Part shown: in pieces, positions 3,290 through 45,359 of the stretch
How positions within the stretch are numbered: position 1 is the stretch's first letter
Layout of the letters: the number at the start of each line of letters is the position of its first letter
Virus record (IMG/VR): IMGVR_UViG_3300012668_000143
Location: 26,403 to 90,402 of that record
Direction: 5' to 3' (one strand)
Length of the DNA stretch: 64,000 bases
From: a virus
Translations under genes and position numbers: made by a program
The notes under the pieces: model-generated
What the model was told of the DNA's origin: nothing
What the model saw: only the letters and a program-made list of their open reading frames with translations
The model's database searches: none

Positions 3290-6200
3290 GTGAGTGCCTG
3301 GGGACTGGCTCTAGGGGTCGTCGGAGCGGTTGCCGGCAGTCTTATCTTGCCTGGAGTAGGCACGCAGCTCGGATGGTCTATAGGCGCTGCTTCAGGAGCC
3401 GGGATCGGGTGGGCAGTAGGGTCGGCGGTTGGCGGCATGATGGATGTGCGCAACACGACACTGCGCCGAACCGGGCCGACACTCAGCGATTTAGACATCC
3501 AGCCATCGATCTATGGTGGTTTGGTGCCGATACATTTCGGCACCGTGGCGGCTATAGGCATCCCGATTGATCTCGACAGAATCAAGGCACACGAACATAC
3601 AGAATCGTCAGGTGGAGGAGGAAAGGGCGGCGGTGGCGGCGGATCAGAGACCACGACCACTACCTACACCGCATCGGTGGCGATCATGTTCGGCGAGGGT
3701 GTGTGTCTTGGCATCCGCAGGATATGGATGGACGGCAAATTATGGTTTGCGGTCGCGGATGATGCAAGCGCGGAAACCATTATAGCCAGCTCAGCCAACT
3801 CTGGAACATTCAAATTCTATTCCGGTACGGAAACGCAATTGCCAGACCCAACGCTTGAAGCGATGCACGGCGTTGGCAATGTATCGGCCTATAGGGGTGA
3901 AGCGTATGTCGTTTTCACCGACAACGCGGAAATCCTGAATGGGAATGCATTGCGGCAGTTGAAGTTCGAGCTGGTGTATTCGGGGTCTATTGGGATAGCT
4001 AATCGTAAGTGGGGAAAGGGGCCGGCGTCAGCCGGGAATCTGGCAAACGGCGGGCCGCAGTCGTTTATCGAGAGCGATGGAGACGAAATAATCTTCATGC
4101 GACATCGGGCTGGGACACCGGATGCGTACGAGGTGTGGTCGATTACGCCGGTGTCACAAACGCGGAGCAATGGTTTTTCTATTTCGGATATGTCCGGTTA
4201 TCCTGGCCCATCGGCAGGCGCGGCGGATGAAGTAGGACATCTGCGTGCATGGCTAGTGGAGGACGTTTTTCAGGGTGTATACCGCTGGATCAGGCCGGAT
4301 GGCAGCTTTGCAAGCTACGAGACCGGTCTCGACTTTATTGCGTTCGAGCCGGTCAATACGTTGGCGTTTTCGAAGCTGGGAAGTGACATGCTCCTGCTCG
4401 GTGCGCACTCAGCGACGGTGACGACGTATACCCAGGTAAAACTATTCCATGGGCCATCAGTTAGCGGTAGCGCTATCCCAAATATTAATGTGACGCGCGA
4501 CTTTGTGGCGGATTTGGCAGTCGGAGAGACGATCTGGGCCGTGGTTCTGACGACCACGAGCGCTTGGGTAATGTCGGTGAATTCTGCTGGTGCCGGCGCG
4601 TACATCCTGCGCAAATGCAGTTTGTCAGACCTCTCGACGCTGAGCACGGTCACGCACGCATTTACCGGCATCATACCCGGCGGCACAGGAGAGCAGTTCG
4701 GGTCATTGTTCGCAGGCGACACCGAAATCTGTCTCGCGGGCGACATTTTTTACATGCGGTGCCGCAACCCGTCTGCTGCCGGGAACTATTTCATTCTGAA
4801 AGTCGATGCAGATGGAGGCATAAGCATCGAAGGCAGCGATGGGATCGGCGCGGCGGTTGTTGCAGGCACGGGTATCGGGCCGGACATTGGCGCCGGTAGC
4901 AGCGGCGTTGGTGCCCAAGTCAGCTTATATGGTAGTGCGTTTGGCTACAATCCGTCAACCAAAGTGGCAACGTTCATGGCGAACGAAAACCTTGGGCCGG
5001 ATTACTTGGTGTGGCCGTATAGCGTGAATATGGGAGCAATCTCTAGCACGTGGCCGACAGATGGAGAAGTTATTGCGGCCATTTCACAGCGCGCCGGATA
5101 TACGCCGGAACAGATCGATGTCGCTCAGATGACCGACCCGCTGCATGGGTATTCCATACTGTCGGTCGGCACCGGACGGACATCGATCGAGCCATTGTGC
5201 AAATACGGGCTGGCCGATCCGGTAGATTCGGACGGCAAGACAAAATATATCAAACGCGGCGGGCCACCGCTATTTACTGTCAACTTCGACGACCTTTGTG
5301 CACATGAAATAGGCTCGCAAATGCCGGAGCCGTTCGCTGCAACACGGCGGCAAGAGCTAGAGCTGCCGCGTTCGTTGGTAGTCAACTTCAAGAATCCGCT
5401 GGCGGATTACGACTTCGGTAGCGAGCGCAGTCCGCAGCGAGCGACGCTGAGCCAAAACGATGTGGTGGACGATTTGCCGATCGTTATGTTGCCGCAAAAG
5501 GCAGCGGAACTGGCATCTGCGCTGTACTTCGATCAGATCATTCAGCGCACACCACGCACCTTTTATGTGCTGAAAAAGTTCGAGCACGTCGAACCGACCG
5601 ATCCAGGCTGGGTGGAATATCCGCGCGGCACGTTCAATCCGGTGCGCATCGTCAAGCGCGAAGAAAACGGCCCGGTGCTCAAGTTCGATAGCGTGCCGGA
5701 AGATGCTGACGCTTACACGCCGAATGTCGTAGCATCGTCGGTAGTTACTGCGCAGACCAGCCTATCGCTGCGAGGGCCTACAACGTTTGTGCCGCTCGAT
5801 ATTCCGATCCTGCGCGATGCGGACGACGACGCAGGTTTTTATGCGCCTATGAGCCGCAATACGGTGACGTGGAGCGGTGCCGTGCTCGCTCGCAGCATAG
5901 ACGACGTGACTTATGCGGATATCGGCACCGTAACTACGAGCGCTGTCATCGGCTGGGCAGATACGGTACTTGCAGACTGGACTGGCGGCAATGTGTTCGA
6001 TGAAATCCACACACTCGATGTATCCATCGGAACGGTCGGAGCGCTTAGCAGTGCGACACGCGATGTGGTGCTCGATACAGGCGCGAATGCGGCAGTAGTC
6101 GGATCAGATGGGAGATGGGAGATCATTCAATTCCGCGCTGCTACCTTGGTATCGCCAAACAAGTATCGGCTTTCCAGCCTGTTGCGTGGGCGGCGCGGAA

Positions 6201-6718
6201 CTGAGTGGGCGATGGGCACCCATACTATCGGAGATCGGTTCGCATTGCTCGGCACGTCAGGTACGTTGCGCCCGAACGAGGGCAACATGGCGCTCAACTC
6301 GCGGCGTTATTACAAGCCGGTCAGCATTGGCCGCTCATTGGCAAAGACCTATGCGCAGCAGTTCACCAATACCGGCGTTGGTCTTAAGCCGTTTAGCCCG
6401 GTAAATTTGCGCGGAACACGGGACGGCAGCGGCAATCTTACTGTAACGTGTGATCGGCGCACGCGCCTCGCGATCTTCAGTCGCAGCGTACCCGTGCCGC
6501 TTGGAGAAGCATCAGAGCTTTATGATATGGACATATTCTCTGACAGCACGTACACGACGATAAAGCGGACATTAAGCAATGTCGGCTCATCCGGATTAGG
6601 ATATTCTGGATCGGATCAGATAGCCGAGTTTGGCAGCGTGCAAGCGGTCGTGTATGTCAAGGTCTATATGAAATCAGCAATCGTTGGTCGCGGCTACGCG
6701 GCCTCGCGAGGAGTCTAG
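3290..6718 (+). CDS. Tail tip / host-specificity protein (phage-tail_3 / GTA-like)
   Basis: YGGLVPIHFGT, IRRIWMDGKL, FYSGTETQLPDP, AYRGEAYVVF, GRWEIIQFR, LLRGRRGTEWA motifs; 1142 aa. Confidence 0.85.
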   Translation: MSAWGLALGVVGAVAGSLILPGVGTQLGWSIGAASGAGIGWAVGSAVGGMMDVRNTTLRRTGPTLSDLDIQPSIYGGLVPIHFGTVAAIGIPIDLDRIKAHEHTESSGGGGKGGGGGGSETTTTTYTASVAIMFGEGVCLGIRRIWMDGKLWFAVADDASAETIIASSANSGTFKFYSGTETQLPDPTLEAMHGVGNVSAYRGEAYVVFTDNAEILNGNALRQLKFELVYSGSIGIANRKWGKGPASAGNLANGGPQSFIESDGDEIIFMRHRAGTPDAYEVWSITPVSQTRSNGFSISDMSGYPGPSAGAADEVGHLRAWLVEDVFQGVYRWIRPDGSFASYETGLDFIAFEPVNTLAFSKLGSDMLLLGAHSATVTTYTQVKLFHGPSVSGSAIPNINVTRDFVADLAVGETIWAVVLTTTSAWVMSVNSAGAGAYILRKCSLSDLSTLSTVTHAFTGIIPGGTGEQFGSLFAGDTEICLAGDIFYMRCRNPSAAGNYFILKVDADGGISIEGSDGIGAAVVAGTGIGPDIGAGSSGVGAQVSLYGSAFGYNPSTKVATFMANENLGPDYLVWPYSVNMGAISSTWPTDGEVIAAISQRAGYTPEQIDVAQMTDPLHGYSILSVGTGRTSIEPLCKYGLADPVDSDGKTKYIKRGGPPLFTVNFDDLCAHEIGSQMPEPFAATRRQELELPRSLVVNFKNPLADYDFGSERSPQRATLSQNDVVDDLPIVMLPQKAAELASALYFDQIIQRTPRTFYVLKKFEHVEPTDPGWVEYPRGTFNPVRIVKREENGPVLKFDSVPEDADAYTPNVVASSVVTAQTSLSLRGPTTFVPLDIPILRDADDDAGFYAPMSRNTVTWSGAVLARSIDDVTYADIGTVTTSAVIGWADTVLADWTGGNVFDEIHTLDVSIGTVGALSSATRDVVLDTGANAAVVGSDGRWEIIQFRAATLVSPNKYRLSSLLRGRRGTEWAMGTHTIGDRFALLGTSGTLRPNEGNMALNSRRYYKPVSIGRSLAKTYAQQFTNTGVGLKPFSPVNLRGTRDGSGNLTVTCDRRTRLAIFSRSVPVPLGEASELYDMDIFSDSTYTTIKRTLSNVGSSGLGYSGSDQIAEFGSVQAVVYVKVYMKSAIVGRGYAASRGV

Positions 6719-6722
6719 CTAG

Positions 6723-8693
6723 ATGGCAGATTCAGGAACAACCAATATCCCGCAGTTGTCCCCGTCGCAAGCCAATCTTGAGCTGCGGTTAAATGAGATA
6801 ACTGCTGCTGGCAGTCCAGCGTTGATGTATGGCGTCGATCCGGCTACAACGACGGGATTGGTATTTGGATGGATAGGCGGCAGATGGGGCGGATTTGCCG
6901 TGCCGAATGGATCGGCAGTGCTCACGGCGAGTACTACGCAATATCAAGTCGTGGCAATCGCCACGGGCGCGCCGTCATTCTCTACTGGGACGACCAATTG
7001 GAACGACAGTACGAACTATGTGCGGACATACAAGATTACCGTAGGCACGTCCAGCCTGACTTATGAAGATCACCGTGGCGGGCCAGGCGGGATTAACGGA
7101 GGCAGCGCTGGAGGCACAGGCGTAGGTAGCGTAACCAGCGTCGCACTCACGCCGCCCGCCGCAGGCATTACTGGCTCGGTGGCAGACGCAACCACGACAC
7201 CGGTCATAACGCTGGGGTTGGCGAATGATCTTGCTGCCGTAGAGGGCTTGGCAGCGACAGGGATCGTGCGGCGTACAGCAACCGATACATGGTCTGCCGG
7301 AACCGCCGTAAGTCTCACCACAGAAGTGAGCGGCGTACTGCCGATTGCCAATATCGCGACCGGCACGCCAACCGGAACGAAGTTCGTGCGTGACGACGGG
7401 ACGCTTGCGATACCTGCCGGAACTGGCGGTGATGCGTTGACATCCAATCCGATGAGTCAATTTGCAGCGACTACCAGCGCACAACTAGCTGGCGTAATGA
7501 CCAACGAAACCGGCTCTGGCGCGTTGGTGTTCGCTACCTCGCCGACGTTGGTTACGCCAGTACTAGGAACGCCTGCAAGCGGCACACTGACGAACTGTAC
7601 GGGCCTGCCGGTGGCCGGAGGAGGAACGGGTATCGCCGCGCTGACGGTCTACGCGCCAGTGTTCGGCGGCACGACAACGACTGGGGCGGTACAGAGCGGA
7701 ACGGTAGGCACATCGGGCCAGGTGCTCACGTCCAATGGAGCCGGTGCACTGCCGACGTTTCAGGCGGCTGGCGGCGGTGCCAGCCTGTCGAACTGGACGG
7801 AAGGCGTAGCTACTGCGTCGCCCAACAACACTGTTCCAGTAGTCTCGCTGACAGTTAGCAATGCCGCCTCATCGGTAGACGCGGCGATCATCCCGAAGGC
7901 ATTAGGCGCCTTGCTAGGGGCAATCCCGGACGGAACTACGACCGGAGGCGATAAGCGCGGGCAGCGCGCGGTTGATTGGCAATTGTCGAGAACAACGGCT
8001 GCGCAAGTAGCTAGTGGCTTGGCGGCAGTGCTCGCCGGTGGCGCTGAGAATAAAGCCAGCGGGAACTATTCATCTGGCGGTGGTGGTTTTGGCAATTCAT
8101 TAACCAATCACTATACAAGCAACCCAGGCGGGCAGGGCAACATTATCAGTGGGTACGGAGCGACCGTCCTCGGCGGCACCAGTAATGTTGGGAGCGGGGA
8201 TTACTCCACAGCCGGCGGGACGTGTGCCACGACTCGCGGTATCCAGGGGATGCAGGCGTTCGCGCCTGGCAAATTAAATGTAGTAGGTGATGCCCAATCT
8301 GGCGCCTATATTTTATATAACCAAACTACCAATGCCACGCCAAAAACACTAACGGCCAACACCGGAGCGGCCACGACTACTAACAGTATGGTTCTGCCGA
8401 ACAATGCCGCGTTTAGCTTTATCGGACAACTCGTGGGACGCTGCAACGCCAGCGGAGACGCATCATCGTGGCGGCTTGAGGGACTTATCAAGCGAGGCGC
8501 GAATGCGGCATCGACGGCATTGGTCAGTGCCGTTACGCCTGGGCTGATAGCACAGGATGCGGGTGCATCTGCGTGGGCGGTAACTGTCACAGCGGACACG
8601 ACGAATGGCGGGCTGAACATAGCCGTTACCGGGGTTGCAGCAACCACGATAAATTGGGTGGTGGTTGTCCGCACTGCGGAAATAGTTGGTTGA
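6723..8693 (+). CDS. Tail fibre / receptor-binding protein
   Basis: Gly/Thr/Ala-rich, 656 aa; segments such as TNETGSGALVFATSPTLVTP.LGTPASG.LTNCTGLP are common in tail fibres; follows the tail tip gene. Confidence 0.75.
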   Translation: MADSGTTNIPQLSPSQANLELRLNEITAAGSPALMYGVDPATTTGLVFGWIGGRWGGFAVPNGSAVLTASTTQYQVVAIATGAPSFSTGTTNWNDSTNYVRTYKITVGTSSLTYEDHRGGPGGINGGSAGGTGVGSVTSVALTPPAAGITGSVADATTTPVITLGLANDLAAVEGLAATGIVRRTATDTWSAGTAVSLTTEVSGVLPIANIATGTPTGTKFVRDDGTLAIPAGTGGDALTSNPMSQFAATTSAQLAGVMTNETGSGALVFATSPTLVTPVLGTPASGTLTNCTGLPVAGGGTGIAALTVYAPVFGGTTTTGAVQSGTVGTSGQVLTSNGAGALPTFQAAGGGASLSNWTEGVATASPNNTVPVVSLTVSNAASSVDAAIIPKALGALLGAIPDGTTTGGDKRGQRAVDWQLSRTTAAQVASGLAAVLAGGAENKASGNYSSGGGGFGNSLTNHYTSNPGGQGNIISGYGATVLGGTSNVGSGDYSTAGGTCATTRGIQGMQAFAPGKLNVVGDAQSGAYILYNQTTNATPKTLTANTGAATTTNSMVLPNNAAFSFIGQLVGRCNASGDASSWRLEGLIKRGANAASTALVSAVTPGLIAQDAGASAWAVTVTADTTNGGLNIAVTGVAATTINWVVVVRTAEIVG

Positions 8694-8759
8694 TGGCCTA
8701 CAGAGAATGTAGAAATCATGTTCACTAGAGCCAACCGTCGCTCCGAAGTAAGCGTGGAT

Positions 8760-9044
8760 ATGCCAGATTCAAGCGGTATCGGCGCGATCATTGATCTCAA
8801 TAAGCAATTGGATAGAATCTACAAAGCGATGGTCGGGCACGGCAAACTGCAAAAGCAGCAGCACGAAGAATGGACATCAGAGATGGCATTACTCCAAAAC
8901 GAGGTGCTTGCGACGCGACTAAAGATAGCTGCGATCAACAAGGCGCTGGAAAATAGTTTGGATTCCCACGCGACGAAAAATAAAGAGCTGAGGATGTTGC
9001 GCGAGCTTGGAGGGCGCAGGGCGAGCGATAAAAGTTCGCGGTGA
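8760..9044 (+). CDS. Hypothetical coiled-coil protein upstream of endolysin
   Basis: Clean ORF in operon position between fibre and lysin; no TM segment seen. Confidence 0.55.
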   Translation: MPDSSGIGAIIDLNKQLDRIYKAMVGHGKLQKQQHEEWTSEMALLQNEVLATRLKIAAINKALENSLDSHATKNKELRMLRELGGRRASDKSSR

Positions 9045-9247
9045 CCGTTATGTCAGCATCCATTAGACCACTGTTTCTGACGGCACTTGGTCTAGGGGTA
9101 ATAACGTATACAGAAGCCGTGCGGTTGACGAGGCACTGTCAGAGGCAGATTGACGCGCAAAGATGCCTCCCGTTGCCGCGCTCGCTGATTCCGGCGGCAG
9201 ACAAGATTTTGCTGCTGGAGCAGGATGCGAGCGAAACGCGGCATTGA
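9041..9247 (+). CDS. Small protein with one hydrophobic segment (possible holin-like)
   Basis: GTGA overlap with the previous gene; LFLTALGLGVITY hydrophobic stretch; directly before the endolysin. Confidence 0.35.
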   Translation: MTVMSASIRPLFLTALGLGVITYTEAVRLTRHCQRQIDAQRCLPLPRSLIPAADKILLLEQDASETRH

Positions 9248-9264
9248 CGAAGGCGCACGGTTCG

Positions 9265-9822
9265 ATGAAGATGAGTCCGGCCGGACTGCAACTCTTGACA
9301 CTGTGGGAAGGCTCGAAACGTAAGGTCTACACGGATTCTGCCGGGTTGCTGACTATCGGCGTCGGCCATCTGCTGCTGAAGCACGAGATAGTGGCGGACG
9401 CGATCAAGATCGGAGGAAAGCCGGTGCGCCTGAGATATGGTCTGTCAGACATGCAAATCGGCGAGCTGTTGGCGCAAGACCTCGTGCGTTTCGAGGATGC
9501 GATCAACAAGAATGTCAGCGTAACGCTGAGTCAAAATCAGTTCGATGCGCTGGTATCGTTCAGTTTCAACGTCGGGGTCACTGCGTTTCTCAGAAGCTCG
9601 TTGTTGAAGGAGATCAACAGCGGAAATATGGAGGCAGTGCCTAATCAGATGCGCCGCTGGAATACGGTAGGCGGAAAGCCGGTGCAGGGATTGACCAATC
9701 GGCGCGAGAAGGAAATCAGGCTGTGGCTCGGCCAGACACAAGCGCGCGAATCCGCATCGCCAACGTCGGATGGCTGGCAAACGCAACCAGCCAGCGTGTC
9801 CAGCTCCGTGACGGATAGATAG
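9265..9822 (+). CDS. Endolysin, GH24 phage lysozyme
   Basis: WEG..RKVYTDSAGLLTIGVGH (E-8-D-5-T triad), LSQNQFDALVSFSFNVG, GLTNRREKE; unusual C-terminal extension. Confidence 0.92.
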   Translation: MKMSPAGLQLLTLWEGSKRKVYTDSAGLLTIGVGHLLLKHEIVADAIKIGGKPVRLRYGLSDMQIGELLAQDLVRFEDAINKNVSVTLSQNQFDALVSFSFNVGVTAFLRSSLLKEINSGNMEAVPNQMRRWNTVGGKPVQGLTNRREKEIRLWLGQTQARESASPTSDGWQTQPASVSSSVTDR

Positions 9823-14276: not shown

Positions 14277-15686
14277 TCAGTGCAGGCTCTTGCCGTAGGC
14301 CAGCGACGTGCGCAACGTGCCGGACAGATTGGCGGTCATGGCGCGCTCCATGTACGCTACCTCCTCCGCGATGTGGTAGGTGCTGATGGTCTGCGTGTAC
14401 GCGGTCAACAAAACGGCGCGCGCGTCCTTCTCAATCGTGTCGATGTCCGGTTGCAGCTTTTCCATGACTGCAGAAACGGACGGGCTTGCTTGTGCCGAAT
14501 ACTTGGAAAGCGCAGCCCTGAGATCGTGCGCGGCCCGCTGTAGATAGACTTCCGCGTATTTGGCGGCGAGCAGCTCTTGATAGCGGTTGACCAGGTTATC
14601 GGCCACGGCGGTATTGTCGAGCGAGGTTGCGACGGCGAGGATTTTGTAGACCGGAATATCGGTCGCGTTCAGAAATTTCATGATGCCGGCGGGATCGGCA
14701 AATGCTGAACGAGTAGAAATATTGTCTGTGATGTCCCACATTTTTTTACGAATCATGGCCCGGAAGCTTTTGGTAGTCAGGTTTTCTTCGTGAACCGTGA
14801 GGCAATCGACCGGCTCATCGCATTTCCAGATCGGCAGGTCGATCTCGCCCATTGGCTTACCATCCTCATCGACTACATTGCCGCCGAGCAAGGTCTGTAC
14901 GGTGATTTCCTTGCGGACGAGGACAATAGGGGGTGTTTCCTTGTCTGTTGAAAATATCGACGTGCCGATCATCGACATTAAGAGCATCTTGTATTCGTCG
15001 GTGAGTCCGTCGAGGCTCTTGAGCGCGTTCCACGTTACATTGCCGACCGGCAAGGCGCTTTTTACCTCCGGCTTTGATTCAGCTACTTTGTTGATGGCGT
15101 CGTTTGCCTTGGCCTGATTGCCCATGACGTTCGTCCACGCATCGGTGATGTCGGAGAACACGCCGGTATCCACGCCATAGTTCTTCGCCGTGTTCTGCTT
15201 GTCGCGCGTCCAGTTATCTGGAATGCTGGCGTTGACGAAGCCCTTGGCCGTTTCGCACGAATCGATGTTCTGCCGATTTATCGCCTGCGCCGTAGCTTGG
15301 AGTGCCTGCATTACGTTGTCGCACGTCGGGCACAGATTTTGCACGGCAAGTTTGAATCCGTAACCGAGAGCGTTCGAGCCGATATTCTTCAAAAGTGCGA
15401 CGTACTGTTCCTTGTTGATGTAACTGAAGCCGCCAGCAAACAGGTCGATACCGCCGCAACCGGCATTCCAGCTTGGTGGGGTGAAACTGGCGACGTTGTA
15501 GGTTTGCTTCGGCATGCGCAAAAACATGCTGCCGCCAGATAACATATTTAATGTTTGTCCCTGAAGGGCTGCCGGGCTTGAGACATTGCCTTGCGCGTTA
15601 ACATCATCGAACAACTCTTGCATACTCATTGCGCTGGCGTTAGCAGTTAAAAGGCAGGCGGCAGCGATGCCTGTTATTGTTCGCAT
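14277..15686 (-). CDS. traH: TraH pilus assembly protein
   Basis: PSWNAGCGGIDLFAGGFSYIN, CPTC and SCETAK motifs; start moved to the signal peptide MRTITGIAAACLL. Confidence 0.93.
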   Translation of the reverse strand: MRTITGIAAACLLTANASAMSMQELFDDVNAQGNVSSPAALQGQTLNMLSGGSMFLRMPKQTYNVASFTPPSWNAGCGGIDLFAGGFSYINKEQYVALLKNIGSNALGYGFKLAVQNLCPTCDNVMQALQATAQAINRQNIDSCETAKGFVNASIPDNWTRDKQNTAKNYGVDTGVFSDITDAWTNVMGNQAKANDAINKVAESKPEVKSALPVGNVTWNALKSLDGLTDEYKMLLMSMIGTSIFSTDKETPPIVLVRKEITVQTLLGGNVVDEDGKPMGEIDLPIWKCDEPVDCLTVHEENLTTKSFRAMIRKKMWDITDNISTRSAFADPAGIMKFLNATDIPVYKILAVATSLDNTAVADNLVNRYQELLAAKYAEVYLQRAAHDLRAALSKYSAQASPSVSAVMEKLQPDIDTIEKDARAVLLTAYTQTISTYHIAEEVAYMERAMTANLSGTLRTSLAYGKSLH

Positions 15687-15705
15687 GATTGGTAGTGCCA
15701 TCGAT

Positions 15706-16197
15706 CTATGCCTTCGCAAATGCTTCAAGTGTCTTTGCCAGCGGTAGTGCTTGATGTGCTGTTGTAACGTGCGCTTCGATGCGCTTGATGTTCGGCTGCG
15801 ATGCGAACGAAGTCAGCGCACCCATCATCGACATAAAGGCGTTCTGCTTGATCTTGGATTCGTTCGAGAGCTTGTCGAATTCGACCGCAGCCAGCTTGCG
15901 AATTGAACGACGCGATACTCGTCTGATGCGCCTCAAGTCTCCCTCCGAGGACGCGATAATGTCGTCATCCTTCAGCCGTGTGACGCCGACATTCCTGATG
16001 GATGCGAAGACCATCCGCCGGTCGTACAGCGCCTTATGAATCGCCGATACGAGAATGTGTCGGCTCCGGTATTGAACGTCGATACCGACGAGGCCGGATA
16101 GCTCTGTGTATTGAATCTCGTCTCCGACTTTTGCTGCGATCAGTCGCTCGAAGATAAGACGAGCATCGACTGATAGTTGAAACTGTGGGCGTGCCAT
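15706..16197 (-). CDS. Uncharacterised basic protein, accessory to the RAMP/pentamer-array module
   Basis: Own RBS (AGGAG) fused to the end of array 4; Arg-rich helix RRIRRVSRRSIRKL; possible wHTH-like N-terminus. Confidence 0.75.
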   Translation of the reverse strand: MARPQFQLSVDARLIFERLIAAKVGDEIQYTELSGLVGIDVQYRSRHILVSAIHKALYDRRMVFASIRNVGVTRLKDDDIIASSEGDLRRIRRVSRRSIRKLAAVEFDKLSNESKIKQNAFMSMMGALTSFASQPNIKRIEAHVTTAHQALPLAKTLEAFAKA

Positions 16198-16215
16198 TTG
16201 AATCTCCTAGAAAAA

Positions 16216-16280
16216 ACGTTGCGATGCGTTGCGTGGCGTTACTGTGCCAAGTCAAGCCGAGTGCAGTCTTGCCGTGCCGC
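16216..16280 (-). repeat. Pentamer array 4 (13 units, NN+nRY), putative guide RNA
   Basis: Minus strand: GCGGC ACGGC AAGAC TGCAC TCGGC TTGAC TTGGC ACAGT AACGC CACGC AACGC ATCGC AACGT. Confidence 0.88.
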
Positions 16281-16317
16281 TAAACCATACTTCCATACTG
16301 TCCTGCTAATCCCGTAA

Positions 16318-16372
16318 ACCTTGTCTCGCGCAGAGTAGCCAGACTACGCTTTGCACAGCGCCGCGTAGCCGC
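16318..16372 (-). repeat. Pentamer array 3 (11 units), putative guide RNA
   Basis: Minus strand: GCGGC TACGC GGCGC TGTGC AAAGC GTAGT CTGGC TACTC TGCGC GAGAC AAGGT. Confidence 0.82.
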
Positions 16373-16391
16373 TCCTGCTAATTCTGTAAAA

Positions 16392-16456
16392 CCCTTGTCT
16401 TGCGTTGCGTGGCCGCGTCTCGCCCCGTCCAGCCCCGTCTCGCTACGCCTCGTTAA
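16392..16456 (-). repeat. Pentamer array 2 (13 units), putative guide RNA
   Basis: Minus strand: TTAAC GAGGC GTAGC GAGAC GGGGC TGGAC GGGGC GAGAC GCGGC CACGC AACGC AAGAC AAGGG. Confidence 0.88.
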
Positions 16457-16458
16457 AT

Positions 16459-17022
16459 CTACGCATCCGCCCATTTCACTGCATCCACATTAAACCGCCC
16501 ATAAAACCCGTTCTTGATTGGCCTAAATCGCCCAATGCCGATAAACCTTCCGGCCTGTCGCAAGTGCTCGGTAAACACATCCTCAGTGATAGTTTCATCG
16601 AGCACATGAAATGTCACATCACCGCTCCAGTTCTGGATAACCGGCATGCACTTGTCTACCCGCTTCCCGCCGCCGCGTACTCCGTCTGACGGAAGAAACA
16701 GCCATTCTCCTGGAACATCGTTTTTCTTGATTGGCAAGGTCAGCACATCGAACACCAACACGCCGGCCTCAAAGTGCTTTTTGTACGAGTTGTTTCCCTT
16801 TCCAGGTATTTTTACGCCAAGATACTTCGCTGCATCCGATAGGCAGTTCTTGAACGTCATCGGAGGGATGAACACGTTGCCGTCGCTGTCCACATGAAGC
16901 CGCTCTCGCCAAGTGCGCTTCTCATAATCCTTGGGCTGCTCTTTGTCCAACTTCGGCACGTCGTAATGCCGACTTTGGGAATATGGTGAAAAACTGCTTA
17001 GTGTTGCTGTTGCTGTCTTCAA
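16459..17022 (-). CDS. Minimal Cas7/RAMP-like RNA-binding protein (Vipr-like)
   Basis: N-terminal beta strand plus SPYSQSR; FIPPMTFKNCL (cf. RAMP IPgsslKG); C-terminal Gly-rich loop QAGRFIGIGRFRP..NGFYGRF. TTG start with AGGAG RBS; no other cas genes in the window. Confidence 0.8.
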   Translation of the reverse strand: MKTATATLSSFSPYSQSRHYDVPKLDKEQPKDYEKRTWRERLHVDSDGNVFIPPMTFKNCLSDAAKYLGVKIPGKGNNSYKKHFEAGVLVFDVLTLPIKKNDVPGEWLFLPSDGVRGGGKRVDKCMPVIQNWSGDVTFHVLDETITEDVFTEHLRQAGRFIGIGRFRPIKNGFYGRFNVDAVKWADA

Positions 17023-17040
17023 TTTGTATCTCCTGAAAAA

Positions 17041-17105
17041 CCGTTGAGTTGCGATGCGACGCCTCGCCTGGCCGCGCCATGCCTTATCTAGCCGTGTCCT
17101 GCATT
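17041..17105 (-). repeat. Pentamer array 1 (13 units, mostly NN-GGC), putative guide RNA
   Basis: Minus strand: AATGC AGGAC ACGGC TAGAT AAGGC ATGGC GCGGC CAGGC GAGGC GTCGC ATCGC AACTC AACGG. Confidence 0.9.
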
Positions 17106-17112
17106 GATACTT

Positions 17113-17367
17113 TTACCCCACATTCTTCGGCGCCATAGCCTTCAGCACGCGCGCCGCAATACCCTGCAATTCCTCTTCACTCACTTCTTGCTTGAAGTCG
17201 TCAGCAAATGTCTCGCGCACAAACTTTTCGGTGGAATTCCGCAAGGCTTCGTGAGCGACAATCTTCGCTGCGAACGCTTCCTGCGCGACCACAGACCAGT
17301 TGATGCCGTCTAACACGTCCATTCTGGCTTTCAATTCATCAGGGATAGAAATGCTCATTCGTGCCAT
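17113..17367 (-). CDS. Ribbon-helix-helix (CopG-like) DNA-binding protein
   Basis: MARMSISIPDELKARMD...INWSVVAQEAF fits the RHH beta-alpha-alpha pattern; first gene of the module. Confidence 0.8.
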   Translation of the reverse strand: MARMSISIPDELKARMDVLDGINWSVVAQEAFAAKIVAHEALRNSTEKFVRETFADDFKQEVSEEELQGIAARVLKAMAPKNVG

Positions 17368-17397
17368 GTCTTTTCTCGTTTGTTTGAGCGATGATGC

Positions 17398-17425
17398 AGT
17401 ATAGCATGTTTATGCGTATGTGCAA
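17398..17425 (-). promoter_or_regulatory. Sigma70-type promoter of the RHH-array-RAMP operon
   Basis: Minus strand TTGCAC-16 bp-TATACT with an extended -10 TG, 30 bp upstream of the RHH start. Confidence 0.6.
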
Positions 17426-17540
17426 GTTGTTTTGCGCCGTCTAGCCACATGCAGTCCCGTATAGCTCCATACGGCTCCATCAAGCTGTGCTGTGCGTCTC
17501 AATGCGTCGCAATACGTCTCAGTACACAACGGTACACTGT
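17426..17540 (+). repeat. Pentamer array 5 (23 degenerate NN+nRY units), divergent orientation
   Basis: All 23 consecutive 5-mers end in C/T and 21 have a purine at position 4, e.g. CTAGC CACAT GCAGT CCCGT ATAGC TCCAT ACGGC TCCAT CAAGC TGTGC TGTGC GTCTC AATGC GTCGC AATAC. Confidence 0.65.
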
Positions 17541-17565
17541 ATGCGACAATCTTCTACGCCACATT

Positions 17566-17640
17566 CTCGCCGTAGTTCAACGGATAGAACACGTGCCTCC
17601 TAAGCGCGAAATGCCGGTTCGATTCCGGTCGGCGAGACCA
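17566..17640 (+). tRNA. tRNA-Arg(CCT)
   Basis: Folded by hand: acceptor CTCGCCG/CGGCGAG, D arm GTTC/GAAC, anticodon stem CGTGC/GCGCG with loop CT-CCT-AA, T arm GCCGG-TTCGATT-CCGGT, discriminator A plus encoded CCA; 75 nt. Confidence 0.92.
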
Positions 17641-17648
17641 GTGATAGT

Positions 17649-18422
17649 CTAAAAGCTCTCGCCAGGCTTGGTGCCGGTCAAAACAAAAATACGATCCACG
17701 ATCTCGGTCAAAGACATAGCGCCGAAGCCGATAGCCGTCTTGTCACCGGTTTCCTTAGACCCTATGAACAGCGCCGGTACGCGCTCGATGCCCCATGCCG
17801 TAGCCTGTGCGCGCCCGTCGCGCGGATTGGGAAACTCAGGCAAGCCGCCGCCGTCCACGGTCACGCCCAATACGTCTATGCCGTATTTCGCGGACAGCAT
17901 CTTGAGCACCGGAGCCATAGCGTGACAGTATGGGCAGTCCGAGCGAAAGAAGAATATGAGTCCGTGCGCCTTGGCTAACTCGCGCAACTGTTGATCCTGC
18001 ATGGCCTCGCGGCTGGCATCGTAGGTCTTGATCGCAGCGTTGTTGACGGGCCGCTTGAGCGAATAATCAAGTTCCGGTGTCTGCCACACCACACGGCGCC
18101 AGTTCTCGGCGAATACCGATCCCTTGTTCTGTGTCTCTTGCCACAGGAACATATAGTCCTTCAGATTCGCGTCGGTCGGCTGCATGACTGCAATATCTTC
18201 CCGGCGCTTTATCTCCTCGCGCATCTGTTGCGCGGTCTTGATGTCTTTGTTCTCGATGCGCTTTGAGACTGGAGCGACAGGAACCGGAATGCTAGGCGTC
18301 GGCTCATCGTCGCAGTACCAATAATATTTCGCGGCGTCACATACCCAAACTGATTGGTAGTCCAAGCTTTGTGCGTGGGCGACGCTGCCGGCGAATAGGA
18401 GTGCGATGGCGTGCAATCGCAT
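17649..18422 (-). CDS. traF: TraF thioredoxin-like pilus assembly protein
   Basis: YYWYCD, LIFFFRSDCPYCH, WGIERVPALF motifs. Confidence 0.92.
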   Translation of the reverse strand: MRLHAIALLFAGSVAHAQSLDYQSVWVCDAAKYYWYCDDEPTPSIPVPVAPVSKRIENKDIKTAQQMREEIKRREDIAVMQPTDANLKDYMFLWQETQNKGSVFAENWRRVVWQTPELDYSLKRPVNNAAIKTYDASREAMQDQQLRELAKAHGLIFFFRSDCPYCHAMAPVLKMLSAKYGIDVLGVTVDGGGLPEFPNPRDGRAQATAWGIERVPALFIGSKETGDKTAIGFGAMSLTEIVDRIFVLTGTKPGESF

Positions 18423-43925: not shown

Positions 43926-44141
43926 CAACTAGCGGTTGTTCAACTACAGGATGAAACTACTTTACTTCAACTACTTATAGTGTGGGGGTACCGTTTCACC
44001 ACAGCATCGGGTACCAATTCACCACAAACCGGGTACCGCTTCACCACAGGGCTAGGGTACCTTTTCACCAGTAACAAGTATGGTTATCCGCAGAAATTGT
44101 GGATAACTGTCTCGACAGCGGCAGGGTACCGTTTCACCACA
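43926..44141. promoter_or_regulatory. Plasmid replication origin: AT-rich repeats, 5 iterons, DnaA boxes
   Basis: GGGTACCnnTTCACCA(CA) at 43986, 44009, 44031, 44055 and 44124; DnaA boxes TTATCCGCA (44084) and TGTGGATAA (44098); (C/A)AACTA(C) at 43926, 43941, 43954 and 43968. Confidence 0.88.
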
Positions 44142-45033
44142 ATTGCGACGCTATAGCGGGTGAACTATCAGGCGAAACTTCAATCCCGCCCTCTCTTGCT
44201 CCGAGTACCAGCCCTGGATAAACCGCCTGTATCTTGAGCAAAGCCGGATTGATCGCCTTGCGGAGATTGGCGAGGTCTGCATAACTAGTCCCCAGCGCAG
44301 CCTGCAACTGCCGCCAGCTCATAAACCTTGCCCGACCGCCCTTCCCTGCCCGGAATGCCTGATACGTGAGCAACGAGTACAAATCGAGCGCCAGCGGACT
44401 TCTCTTGATGGCCCTGAGCGCCCGGAGATCGACTGGCACCGGATTGGCCGTAATCGCCGCGAAAAAGTCTGTGTCCAGTTCCACGTAGCTTTGCCAAAGC
44501 GCAGATTGTTGTGCCGGCGCCGGACTCCACCAATAAACCGTTTGCTTGGCGACTTGCATGTAGGCCGTGACTTGGGCTACATGGCCGTCCTGCTCCAAGC
44601 GGCTTTTGAAACTGATCCGCGCGGCAAACAGGCGGCGCATCTGTTGTTCCAGCCGAACTCGGTCGCTGCGAGGCCCTTTCCCGCGATCATCCAGTCCGAG
44701 ATCGTCCATGAAGGCTGCCAGCGTATCTCCGAGCACCAGGCGCGGCGTCTTGGTGCGGATGGCTTCTGTGGTAAGCCAGTAGAGCAACAGGCGCGGGATG
44801 ATCCCATACGGGTGTCCTATGGGGGTGCTGTCGTCGTTGTAGCCCTGCTGAATAGTCAGAGTTAGGTTGCCATTGCTGCGCGACCACACAGGCACGTTGC
44901 CTGGGTCAGCGTGCGGTAAAGTCGTTTGCACAAGCTGCCGCGCCAGAAACGCCTTATCTTGGTCTGTGGGCCGGTCGAGGGCGATTGAAACGCCGGCGTC
45001 TACGATCTTAGTTTGCTGGCGGGTGGCGCGCAT
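44134..45033 (-). CDS. repA: Plasmid replication initiator RepA (RepA_C family)
   Basis: FLARQLVQTTLPH.DPG, PYGIIPRLLLYWL, PVPVDLRAL.AIKRSPLALDLY; adjacent to the iterons. Confidence 0.88.
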   Translation of the reverse strand: MRATRQQTKIVDAGVSIALDRPTDQDKAFLARQLVQTTLPHADPGNVPVWSRSNGNLTLTIQQGYNDDSTPIGHPYGIIPRLLLYWLTTEAIRTKTPRLVLGDTLAAFMDDLGLDDRGKGPRSDRVRLEQQMRRLFAARISFKSRLEQDGHVAQVTAYMQVAKQTVYWWSPAPAQQSALWQSYVELDTDFFAAITANPVPVDLRALRAIKRSPLALDLYSLLTYQAFRAGKGGRARFMSWRQLQAALGTSYADLANLRKAINPALLKIQAVYPGLVLGAREGGIEVSPDSSPAIASQLW

Positions 45034-45359
45034 TAACACGTCAAATTCAACGACGCAAGCGCATCTTCGAGTCTCCCGCATTTCTCGCCGCGCAGTCCGC
45101 GCGGTTCCACGCCGAGGTCGTTGCAATGCGTCACAAGGTTTGTGCAAATCTGTTGTTGGCGAGATAGGTCTGACTTGGACGTGCTCTTGCGCTCGCGTAA
45201 TTGTTCCAGCGTTGCTAGATGCCACTCAGTTGCAGAAGCCAGCACAATCGCCAATTGCCGCGCAGCGGCCTCTGGCGTGCGGTTCTTGAAAAGCGGAGAT
45301 TCAGTCTTCCAATCCATATCGCCAATTGGTATTGATTCAAAAAATTCGCTCAGCGTCAT
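45033..45359 (-). CDS. Hypothetical protein
   Basis: Translationally coupled between the partition genes and repA. Confidence 0.65.
   Translation of the reverse strand: MTLSEFFESIPIGDMDWKTESPLFKNRTPEAAARQLAIVLASATEWHLATLEQLRERKSTSKSDLSRQQQICTNLVTHCNDLGVEPRGLRGEKCGRLEDALASLNLTC

Follow-up and report, generated by a model that had tools for sequence, protein, structure and literature searches.

Here, I show that a 64,000-nucleotide (nt) stretch of viral DNA, called the window throughout and corresponding to positions 26403-90402 of the 100,637-bp IMG/VR record IMGVR_UViG_3300012668_000143 (rated 95% complete), carries on its minus strand a compact locus which is, almost certainly, a VIPR system, its 187-amino-acid (aa) stand-alone RAMP protein being a member of the Vipr family. 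The architecture is that of type II: Vipr, with 187 aa, is joined by an accessory protein of 163 aa that bears a winged helix, and by four predicted guide-RNA genes, one upstream and three downstream of vipr. Two of these guides decode to traH, a conjugation gene, of related plasmids, and the locus itself lies within the transfer operon of an element that combines phage and plasmid features. Taken as a whole, the evidence is probably best explained by VIPR guides that silence the transfer genes of rival plasmids; that the silencing of rivals is the function for which the locus has been selected is a narrower claim, to which I give slightly better than even odds.

VIPR was described only in 2026, as a tool of phage-phage and phage-satellite conflict (bioRxiv 10.64898/2026.04.26.720920, 10.64898/2026.04.26.720927, 10.64898/2026.10.15.759431). 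According to these preprints, the Vipr RAMP polymerises on guide RNAs, the vrRNAs, which are composed of 9-16 YNNGG units and a 3' tail; pairing with double-stranded DNA involves the NN bases alone, one target base being skipped after each such pair; most natural targets lie in coding sequence, where the skip coincides with the wobble position; and in consequence satellites and rival phages are silenced at the level of transcription. Seven VIPR types are distinguished, YNNNG, NNNGG and NNNNG repeats are noted as well, and 3.8% of the loci are located on plasmids.

The vipr gene (16459..17022, minus strand) starts with TTG after an AGGAG ribosome-binding site, at the same start residue as in its relatives. 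A profile built from 54 relatives matched the SUSP1 Vipr protein (PDB 36pp_D) at E = 3.3e-11, residues 23-184 of the query aligning with residues 39-192 of the chain. The AlphaFold2 model (pLDDT 96.6) retrieved 83 solved chains with Foldseek at E <= 1e-3, the top ones all being Cas7-type RAMPs (type VII Cas7, Csm3 and Cmr), and it displays a minimal RAMP fold, consisting of one RRM core, a glycine-rich loop (residues 162-176) and a thumb hairpin (approximately residues 105-127). A preliminary description of this DNA, made from its letters and open reading frames, had recognised a RAMP protein devoid of accompanying cas genes and had likened the locus to VIPR. The fold and the SUSP1 match bear out the first claim, and the neighbouring genes (a ribbon-helix-helix (RHH) gene, the 163-aa gene, traF and traH) bear out the second: no Cas5, Cas6, large subunit, Cas1/2 or Cas3/DinG gene is found among them, and the 100.6-kb element holds no CRISPR-like repeat array (no 20-mer occurs three times or more). 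The third is supported by the homology to SUSP1 Vipr together with the vrRNA-like anatomy of the arrays described below.

A Pfam search with the 187-aa protein gave no match, and in PHROGs it falls into one family of unknown function. Relatives of approximately 185 aa are numerous (2678 in one collection, 1239 clusters at 50% identity in another), all of them unnamed. Distant copies, at 24-30% identity, were found by tblastn among phage genomes in Mooglevirus phages, in the P. aeruginosa phage LESphi2 and in phage DSL-LC04; clean YNNGG arrays flank each of them, and a gene of approximately 150 aa then follows downstream. With regard to the base-contact residues of SUSP1, R179 corresponds to R167, which is invariant in the family, and W178 to F166, so that an aromatic residue is retained; H17 could not be aligned. 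As a side observation, thumb residues 110, 126 and 130 co-vary with the repeat alphabet, being L, M or Y, and Q or R in three loci (the window, L011 and L005) whose arrays frequently carry C as the first constant base, and V, F, and H or T in six G-type loci; the counterpart of residue 126 in SUSP1 is R138, which contacts guanine. This is to be taken only as a lead, the sample being small and the three C-type loci probably close kin from a single clade.

Four pentamer arrays, read here on the same strand, accompany vipr. Array A1 (from 17106 to 17042; 13 pentamers, with a core of nine units) lies directly upstream and is followed by a T-rich stretch (17023..17041) that contains the vipr ribosome-binding site. 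Arrays B1 (from 16452 to 16393; 12 pentamers), B2 (from 16368 to 16319; 10 pentamers) and B3 (from 16276 to 16217; 12 pentamers) lie between vipr and the 163-aa open reading frame. Hence, the layout of one array upstream and three downstream, as previously outlined, holds, with 10-13 units in each. Read in the register Y-N-N-x-R, A1 and B1-B3 together give 47 units, of which 44 have C and three have T at position 1 (a pyrimidine in 47/47); positions 2-3 have an entropy of approximately 1.8 bits; position 4 is G in 25, C in 16, A in four and T in two; and position 5 is G in 35 and A in 10, that is, a purine in 45/47. This composition agrees with the near-constant triplet and variable dinucleotide that had been proposed. 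The consensus, YNNNG/YNNGR, is a variant named in the methods of the VIPR preprint, and the idea that a relaxed triplet alphabet is new has to be abandoned, such repeats being among those already noted there.

The periodicity is confined to the locus. Stretches with at least 7/10 CNNNG units occur only at A1, B1, B2 and B3 within the 64 kb, and runs of at least 11/12 YNNNR units only at B3, B1, A1 and a fifth array, U (run at 17420-17539), in the 100.6-kb element, 20 shuffles reaching at most 10. Enrichment in YNNGG is confined to the minus strand at A1 only; YNNNR equals its own reverse complement, so that strand is unreadable from the pattern. Array U (17425..17534) comprises 22 Y-N-N-N-R units with 10-nt duplications, is assigned to the minus strand by inference only, and ends in a degenerate form of the 3' end seen in its clade. 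U may represent a guide that has decayed or become fixed, or else serve the RHH gene as an operator. A terminator scan at the locus returned nothing useful.

Close relatives of Vipr (64-78% identity) are encoded in phage early regions, next to ERF, SSB, NinG, Prim-Pol, terminase or portal genes and with no cas genes. In most of them vipr is paired with a vap-like gene, as seen in relatives of 68-78% identity, and pentamer arrays lie on its flanks, with CAAxxCAA[G/C]G as their end and a T-rich or hairpin stretch thereafter; the same 3' end, CAAxxCAA[C/G]G and then a T-rich stretch, is common to the clade. The variation of the arrays was followed by aligning contigs from four other soil metagenome runs to the locus. 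Retained in these contigs, at 90-100% identity, are vipr, U and the genes for the RHH and 163-aa proteins; the contigs either break exactly at 17106 into a different pentamer-periodic sequence or carry 195 other letters in place of 17026-17106. Likewise, 16310-16451 (the B1/B2 region) is covered by none of the four runs despite coverage of the flanking genes, and the guide part of B3 diverges beyond 16234/16277. U is nearly fixed, with only three changes in related contigs that have a different A1. The arrays behave as exchangeable guide cassettes between conserved genes, being swapped among relatives that are otherwise 95-100% identical. In one related contig exactly 5 nt, i.e. one unit, are missing at 16216-16224, the constant end of B3, which suggests that arrays change length by whole units.

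The dinucleotides were decoded by the published one-nucleotide-skip rule (xNN); the two nearest plasmids were scanned at up to three mismatches, and seven plasmids were then scored. The nine core units of A1 read AG AC TA AA AT GC CA GA GT and match the sense strand of traH approximately 100 nt before its stop codon, over the peptide STYNIAQEV, at 18/18 read bases in five of the seven plasmids (Acidovorax ebreus, Pandoraea, Comamonas pYAZ2, Cupriavidus and Mycetohabitans) and at 17/18 in the other two (Denitratisoma and Burkholderia savannae). In CP094347.1 this 27-nt site occupies 5594-5620 and is matched at 18/18. The first ten units of B3 read AC AA TG TC TT TT AC AA CA AA and match the antisense strand near the 5' end of the gene (approximately gene positions 264-293, motif FSFINKEQF) at 18/20 in six plasmids and 17/20 in one. 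Both sites are located within the 1.4-kb traH, and in each of them the skipped base is the wobble position of the codon. Wobble bases vary among the plasmids while read bases stay matched, a case in point being Mycetohabitans and Acidovorax, which have four wobble differences and are still matched at 18/18.

Only a skip of one nucleotide works, for rules with a skip of 0, 2 or 3 score 13/18 (A1) and 14/20 (B3). Over 194 kb, i.e. two whole plasmids, 600 shuffled guides reached at most 16/18 and 17/20; reversed guides scored 13-14, and control searches with reversed patterns gave no matches. The 3' end of traH is common to nine PLSDB plasmids at 96% identity or more. Judged from these sequence comparisons, the traH matches very probably represent real guide-target relations, and the proposal that the arrays guide action against rival elements is supported for two of the four, A1 and B3. 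As a side observation, the Denitratisoma record NZ_LR778302.1 holds two traH copies, each with A1 and B3 sites (16354-16382, 17397-17425, 83221-83249 and 84265-84293).

Wider searches yielded no further targets. The exact A1 core has no match in 2.9 million viral contigs; the exact 20-base xNN patterns of A1, B1, B2 and B3 each gave none in viral contigs, and neither did that of A1 in metagenome contigs. Array U, compared with the two whole plasmids, stays within the range of shuffled guides and has no target there. Some candidates were rejected: 88 matches of the 18-base B1 core in metagenome contigs are chance, as they fall in unrelated G-rich coding sequences and do not extend into the next units; the single match of the 18-base B2 core in viral contigs, in an AT-rich phage structural gene, was also judged to be chance; and of the 24 AT-rich matches of a relaxed B3 pattern in viral contigs none is in traH.

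By analogy with the SUSP1 mechanism, one Vipr protomer would occupy each 5-nt unit, sequestering the constant bases and presenting the two variable ones; the resulting filament would pair with double-stranded DNA, skipping every third target base, and would block transcription. A1 and B3 would thereby bind traH of related betaproteobacterial MOBF/MPF_F plasmids, the former towards the 3' end of the gene on its sense strand and the latter towards the 5' end on the antisense strand. The silencing of traH and, by polarity, of the downstream traG in co-resident rival plasmids would amount to an RNA-guided fertility inhibition. In its strongest form the proposal makes of the cassette a plasmid-versus-plasmid weapon, by which traH and traG of a rival MPF_F family are silenced and the own traH escapes through N to H and Q to E changes; this would be the first case of RNA-guided fertility inhibition and would take the targets of VIPR, for the first time, beyond phages and satellites, and I regard it as an evenly balanced proposition. 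Escape would have to proceed by amino-acid change because a code that passes over the wobble base is indifferent to changes there.

Several points weigh against this interpretation. SUSP1 D177 corresponds to R165 and SUSP1 R138 to M126 (F in most relatives), both SUSP1 residues being essential for guanine contacts; the base-contact residues of SUSP1 (H17, R138, D177, W178 and R179) define the SUSP1 clade and not necessarily the family as a whole. A scan of 15600-17700 for the sigma-70 consensus found no site, so that the single promoter behind which the gene and arrays had been placed is not borne out. RNA folding of the arrays gave z values from -0.9 to +0.8 relative to shuffles, and no structured 3' tail was detected. 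The seven plasmids were picked as the nearest TraH relatives and are no random sample, both targets encode conserved peptide motifs, and no perfect B3 match was found anywhere. B1 and B2 have no target in the seven plasmids at up to three mismatches, in viral contigs or in the metagenome scan. Lastly, the own traH matches the guide cores at 89% and 80%, at or above the 80% hit cut-off of the preprint, self-discrimination being only predicted.

The last point leads to the rival explanation that survives best, though an unlikely one: the guides may throttle the traH and transfer operon of their own element, for example by keeping conjugation off during a phage-like lifestyle, with imperfect pairing acting as tunable repression. 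The cassette lies directly upstream of traH, and within the 100.6-kb element A1 and B3 fit best at precisely the homologous sites of the own traH, one on the minus strand (14358..14384, STYHIAEEV, 16/18) and one, antisense to the gene, on the plus strand (15400..15429, 16/20). Yet the own gene differs from the two guides at two and four read positions, and the foreign traH fits better, at 18/18 in five genera versus 16/18 and at 18/20 versus 16/20; selection for self-regulation should keep a perfect self-match. Moreover, whole arrays find no site in the own 100.6 kb above shuffled guides, the best self-sites (19/26 and 16/24) being within the shuffled range, and no self-targets were found in the systems of the preprint. 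Rival targeting is favoured over self-regulation because both guides fit the foreign traH better than the own one.

Somewhat less probable still is that a genuine VIPR locus was captured from a phage and is now an inactive passenger, the traH matches reflecting past conflict or coincidence. The empty promoter scan, the divergent guanine-contact residues, the degenerate look of U and the fact that the close relatives of vipr all reside in ordinary phage early regions are in keeping with such a relic. On the other hand, both open reading frames are intact, with ribosome-binding sites and the conserved residues of the family; the turnover of arrays between near-identical elements implies ongoing selection; and two independent guides converge on one gene, well above the controls. 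Finally, it is very improbable that the arrays act as DNA, as operator- or iteron-like sites of the RHH or winged-helix protein, with the RAMP serving an unrelated RNA role: the self-reverse-complementary YNNNR pattern with its unreadable strand, and the location of U, made of 10-nt duplications, just upstream of the RHH gene, would suit this idea, but operators are conserved and these arrays are exchanged in their entirety from one relative to another, the layout is shared by homologous loci whose vrRNAs have been demonstrated experimentally, and the dinucleotides decode to a coding gene in 3-nt register, which is unexpected for a protein-binding repeat.

The silencing of rival transfer genes, as the preferred reading, is to be placed in the context of the carrier. 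All genes of the locus are on the minus strand, with a tRNA-Arg(CCT) opposite, and their order along that strand is traF, U, the RHH gene, A1, vipr, B1-B2-B3, the 163-aa open reading frame, traH and traG. Only 10-40 nt separate traF from traH in the nearest plasmids; the 1.9-kb segment bounded by the tRNA and the 163-aa gene is therefore an insertion at the traF-traH junction, a cassette inside the F-type transfer operon of an element both phage-like and conjugative. Neither the DNA nor the proteins of the cassette have a match in PLSDB. The position inside a transfer operon, suspected to be new, appears to be unreported, for the word stem 'conjugat*' occurs zero times in the VIPR preprint text that was searched for it.

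The element encodes phage-type genes (large terminase, portal, protease-capsid fusion, tail protein and lysozyme), a complete MOBF/MPF_F conjugation set (TraG, H, F, N, U, C, TrbI, TrwC relaxase and TrwB coupling protein) and, in addition, a RepA_C initiator, a YqaJ recombinase, a methylase and two TnpB-like genes. The carrier thus appears, from its gene content, to be a conjugative phage-plasmid hybrid from soil. Along the same line, the conjugative setting assumed at the outset stands as far as the F-type tra operon is concerned, and fails in that the carrier, with its full phage morphogenesis module, is no plain conjugative plasmid. The host would be a member of the Betaproteobacteria, judging solely from the nearest TraH proteins (61-64% identity), which belong to conjugative plasmids of that class. 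Three modules, namely phage morphogenesis and lysis, conjugation and the RepA_C replicon, are located at L105:1059-9888 and at window positions 3290-9822, 11178-37802 and 44134-45225. The two TnpB-like genes (OrfB_IS605 and a Cas12f1-like TNB domain; positions 90151-91377 and 96471-97577 of the genome, the first beginning at window position 63749) constitute a second class of candidate RNA-guided proteins on the element.

With regard to the neighbouring genes, traF (18422-17649, minus strand) is followed by the tRNA-Arg(CCT) (17566..17640, plus strand; ARAGORN, Rfam 62 bits), which forms the border of the cassette on the traF side and runs antisense to the tra operon. This tRNA is intact, there is no integrase nearby, and it might mark how the cassette arrived. 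The RHH gene (17113..17367, minus strand; 84 aa) lies upstream of A1; PF26688 RHH_12 is recorded for an identical product, and the gene is not retained beside vipr in the close relatives. The 163-aa accessory gene (15706..16197, minus strand) encodes a protein whose model has a winged helix at the N-terminus plus a helical hairpin. A gene of 160-166 aa, 33-41% identical to it, follows vipr in five related loci (L006, L007, L009, L011 and L013), and the 163-aa neighbour in LESphi2 shows weak profile similarity (39% probability); a search against PDB sequences gave no match, and homology to the neighbour gene of Mijalis (SUSP1-like) is unsupported (hhalign probability 5%). The gene is predicted, on the strength of the model and its recurrence, to be a conserved, vap-like winged-helix partner of vipr, which fits the picture of DNA-binding vap genes given in the preprint.

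What is particular to this locus is the combination of a conjugative phage-plasmid carrier, a position in the tra operon and a predicted conjugation-gene target that passes the controls, a class that the searched part of the VIPR preprint text does not mention. A concrete target is predicted, namely a conjugation gene of an environmental plasmid family (Acidovorax, Comamonas, Cupriavidus, Pandoraea and Mycetohabitans). Should the prediction hold, the reach of VIPR extends to plasmid-plasmid competition; the foreign and own traH offer sites that match at 18/18 and at 16/18, a pair provided by nature for measuring the mismatch tolerance of the gapped code; and the cassette supplies a compact programmable repressor from a clade whose recognition of the constant triplet is unlike that of SUSP1.

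Among known systems, the closest is the type II VIPR of Escherichia phage SUSP1 (Vipr, Vap1 and four vrRNAs). Shared with it are a homologous RAMP protein, the succession of vipr and a small accessory gene of DNA-binding type, one guide upstream and three downstream with 10-13 five-base units each, and dinucleotides that decode by a one-nucleotide skip to coding sequence, with the wobble base skipped and targets on either strand. Unlike SUSP1, the Vipr described here is only approximately 20-25% identical to its counterpart, the constant triplet is relaxed at its first guanine (G/C/A), R165 and M126 stand in the place of D177 and R138, and no structured or pseudoknot tail was detected in the arrays; furthermore, the carrier is a conjugative phage-plasmid hybrid with the cassette inside the tra operon, and the predicted target is a plasmid conjugation gene, that of SUSP1 being the recombinase of a satellite. 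The LESphi2 locus, a look-alike of the VIPR of P. fulva-clade Pseudomonas prophages, resembles the present one in its protein (27% identical over 85% of the length), in the YNNGG arrays upstream and in the downstream 163-aa gene with its weak profile similarity. In contrast, VIPR of the Pseudomonas prophage type is located in the immunity region of temperate phages and its reported targets are prophage regulators.

A functional likeness exists with the plasmid-borne type IV-A3 CRISPR-Cas systems (bioRxiv 10.1101/2023.06.23.546257; PMC11519345), which are RNA-guided and nuclease-free, assemble Cas7-type subunits on a guide, reside on conjugative plasmids and repress transcription in plasmid-plasmid conflict. 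Unlike them, the present locus has no CRISPR array, Cas5, Cas6, Cas8, DinG or contiguous spacer, its guide being a gapped pentamer code, and membership in class 1 CRISPR-Cas, type IV included, is ruled out by the absence of a repeat-spacer array and of cas neighbours. Plasmid fertility inhibition, as exemplified by FinOP of F-like plasmids, relies on antisense RNA against the traJ mRNA, or on proteins. No fertility-inhibition system is known to use a programmable RAMP filament on DNA. What the proposed system would have in common with those of the FinOP type is the outcome, that is, one plasmid lowering the expression of the transfer genes of another.

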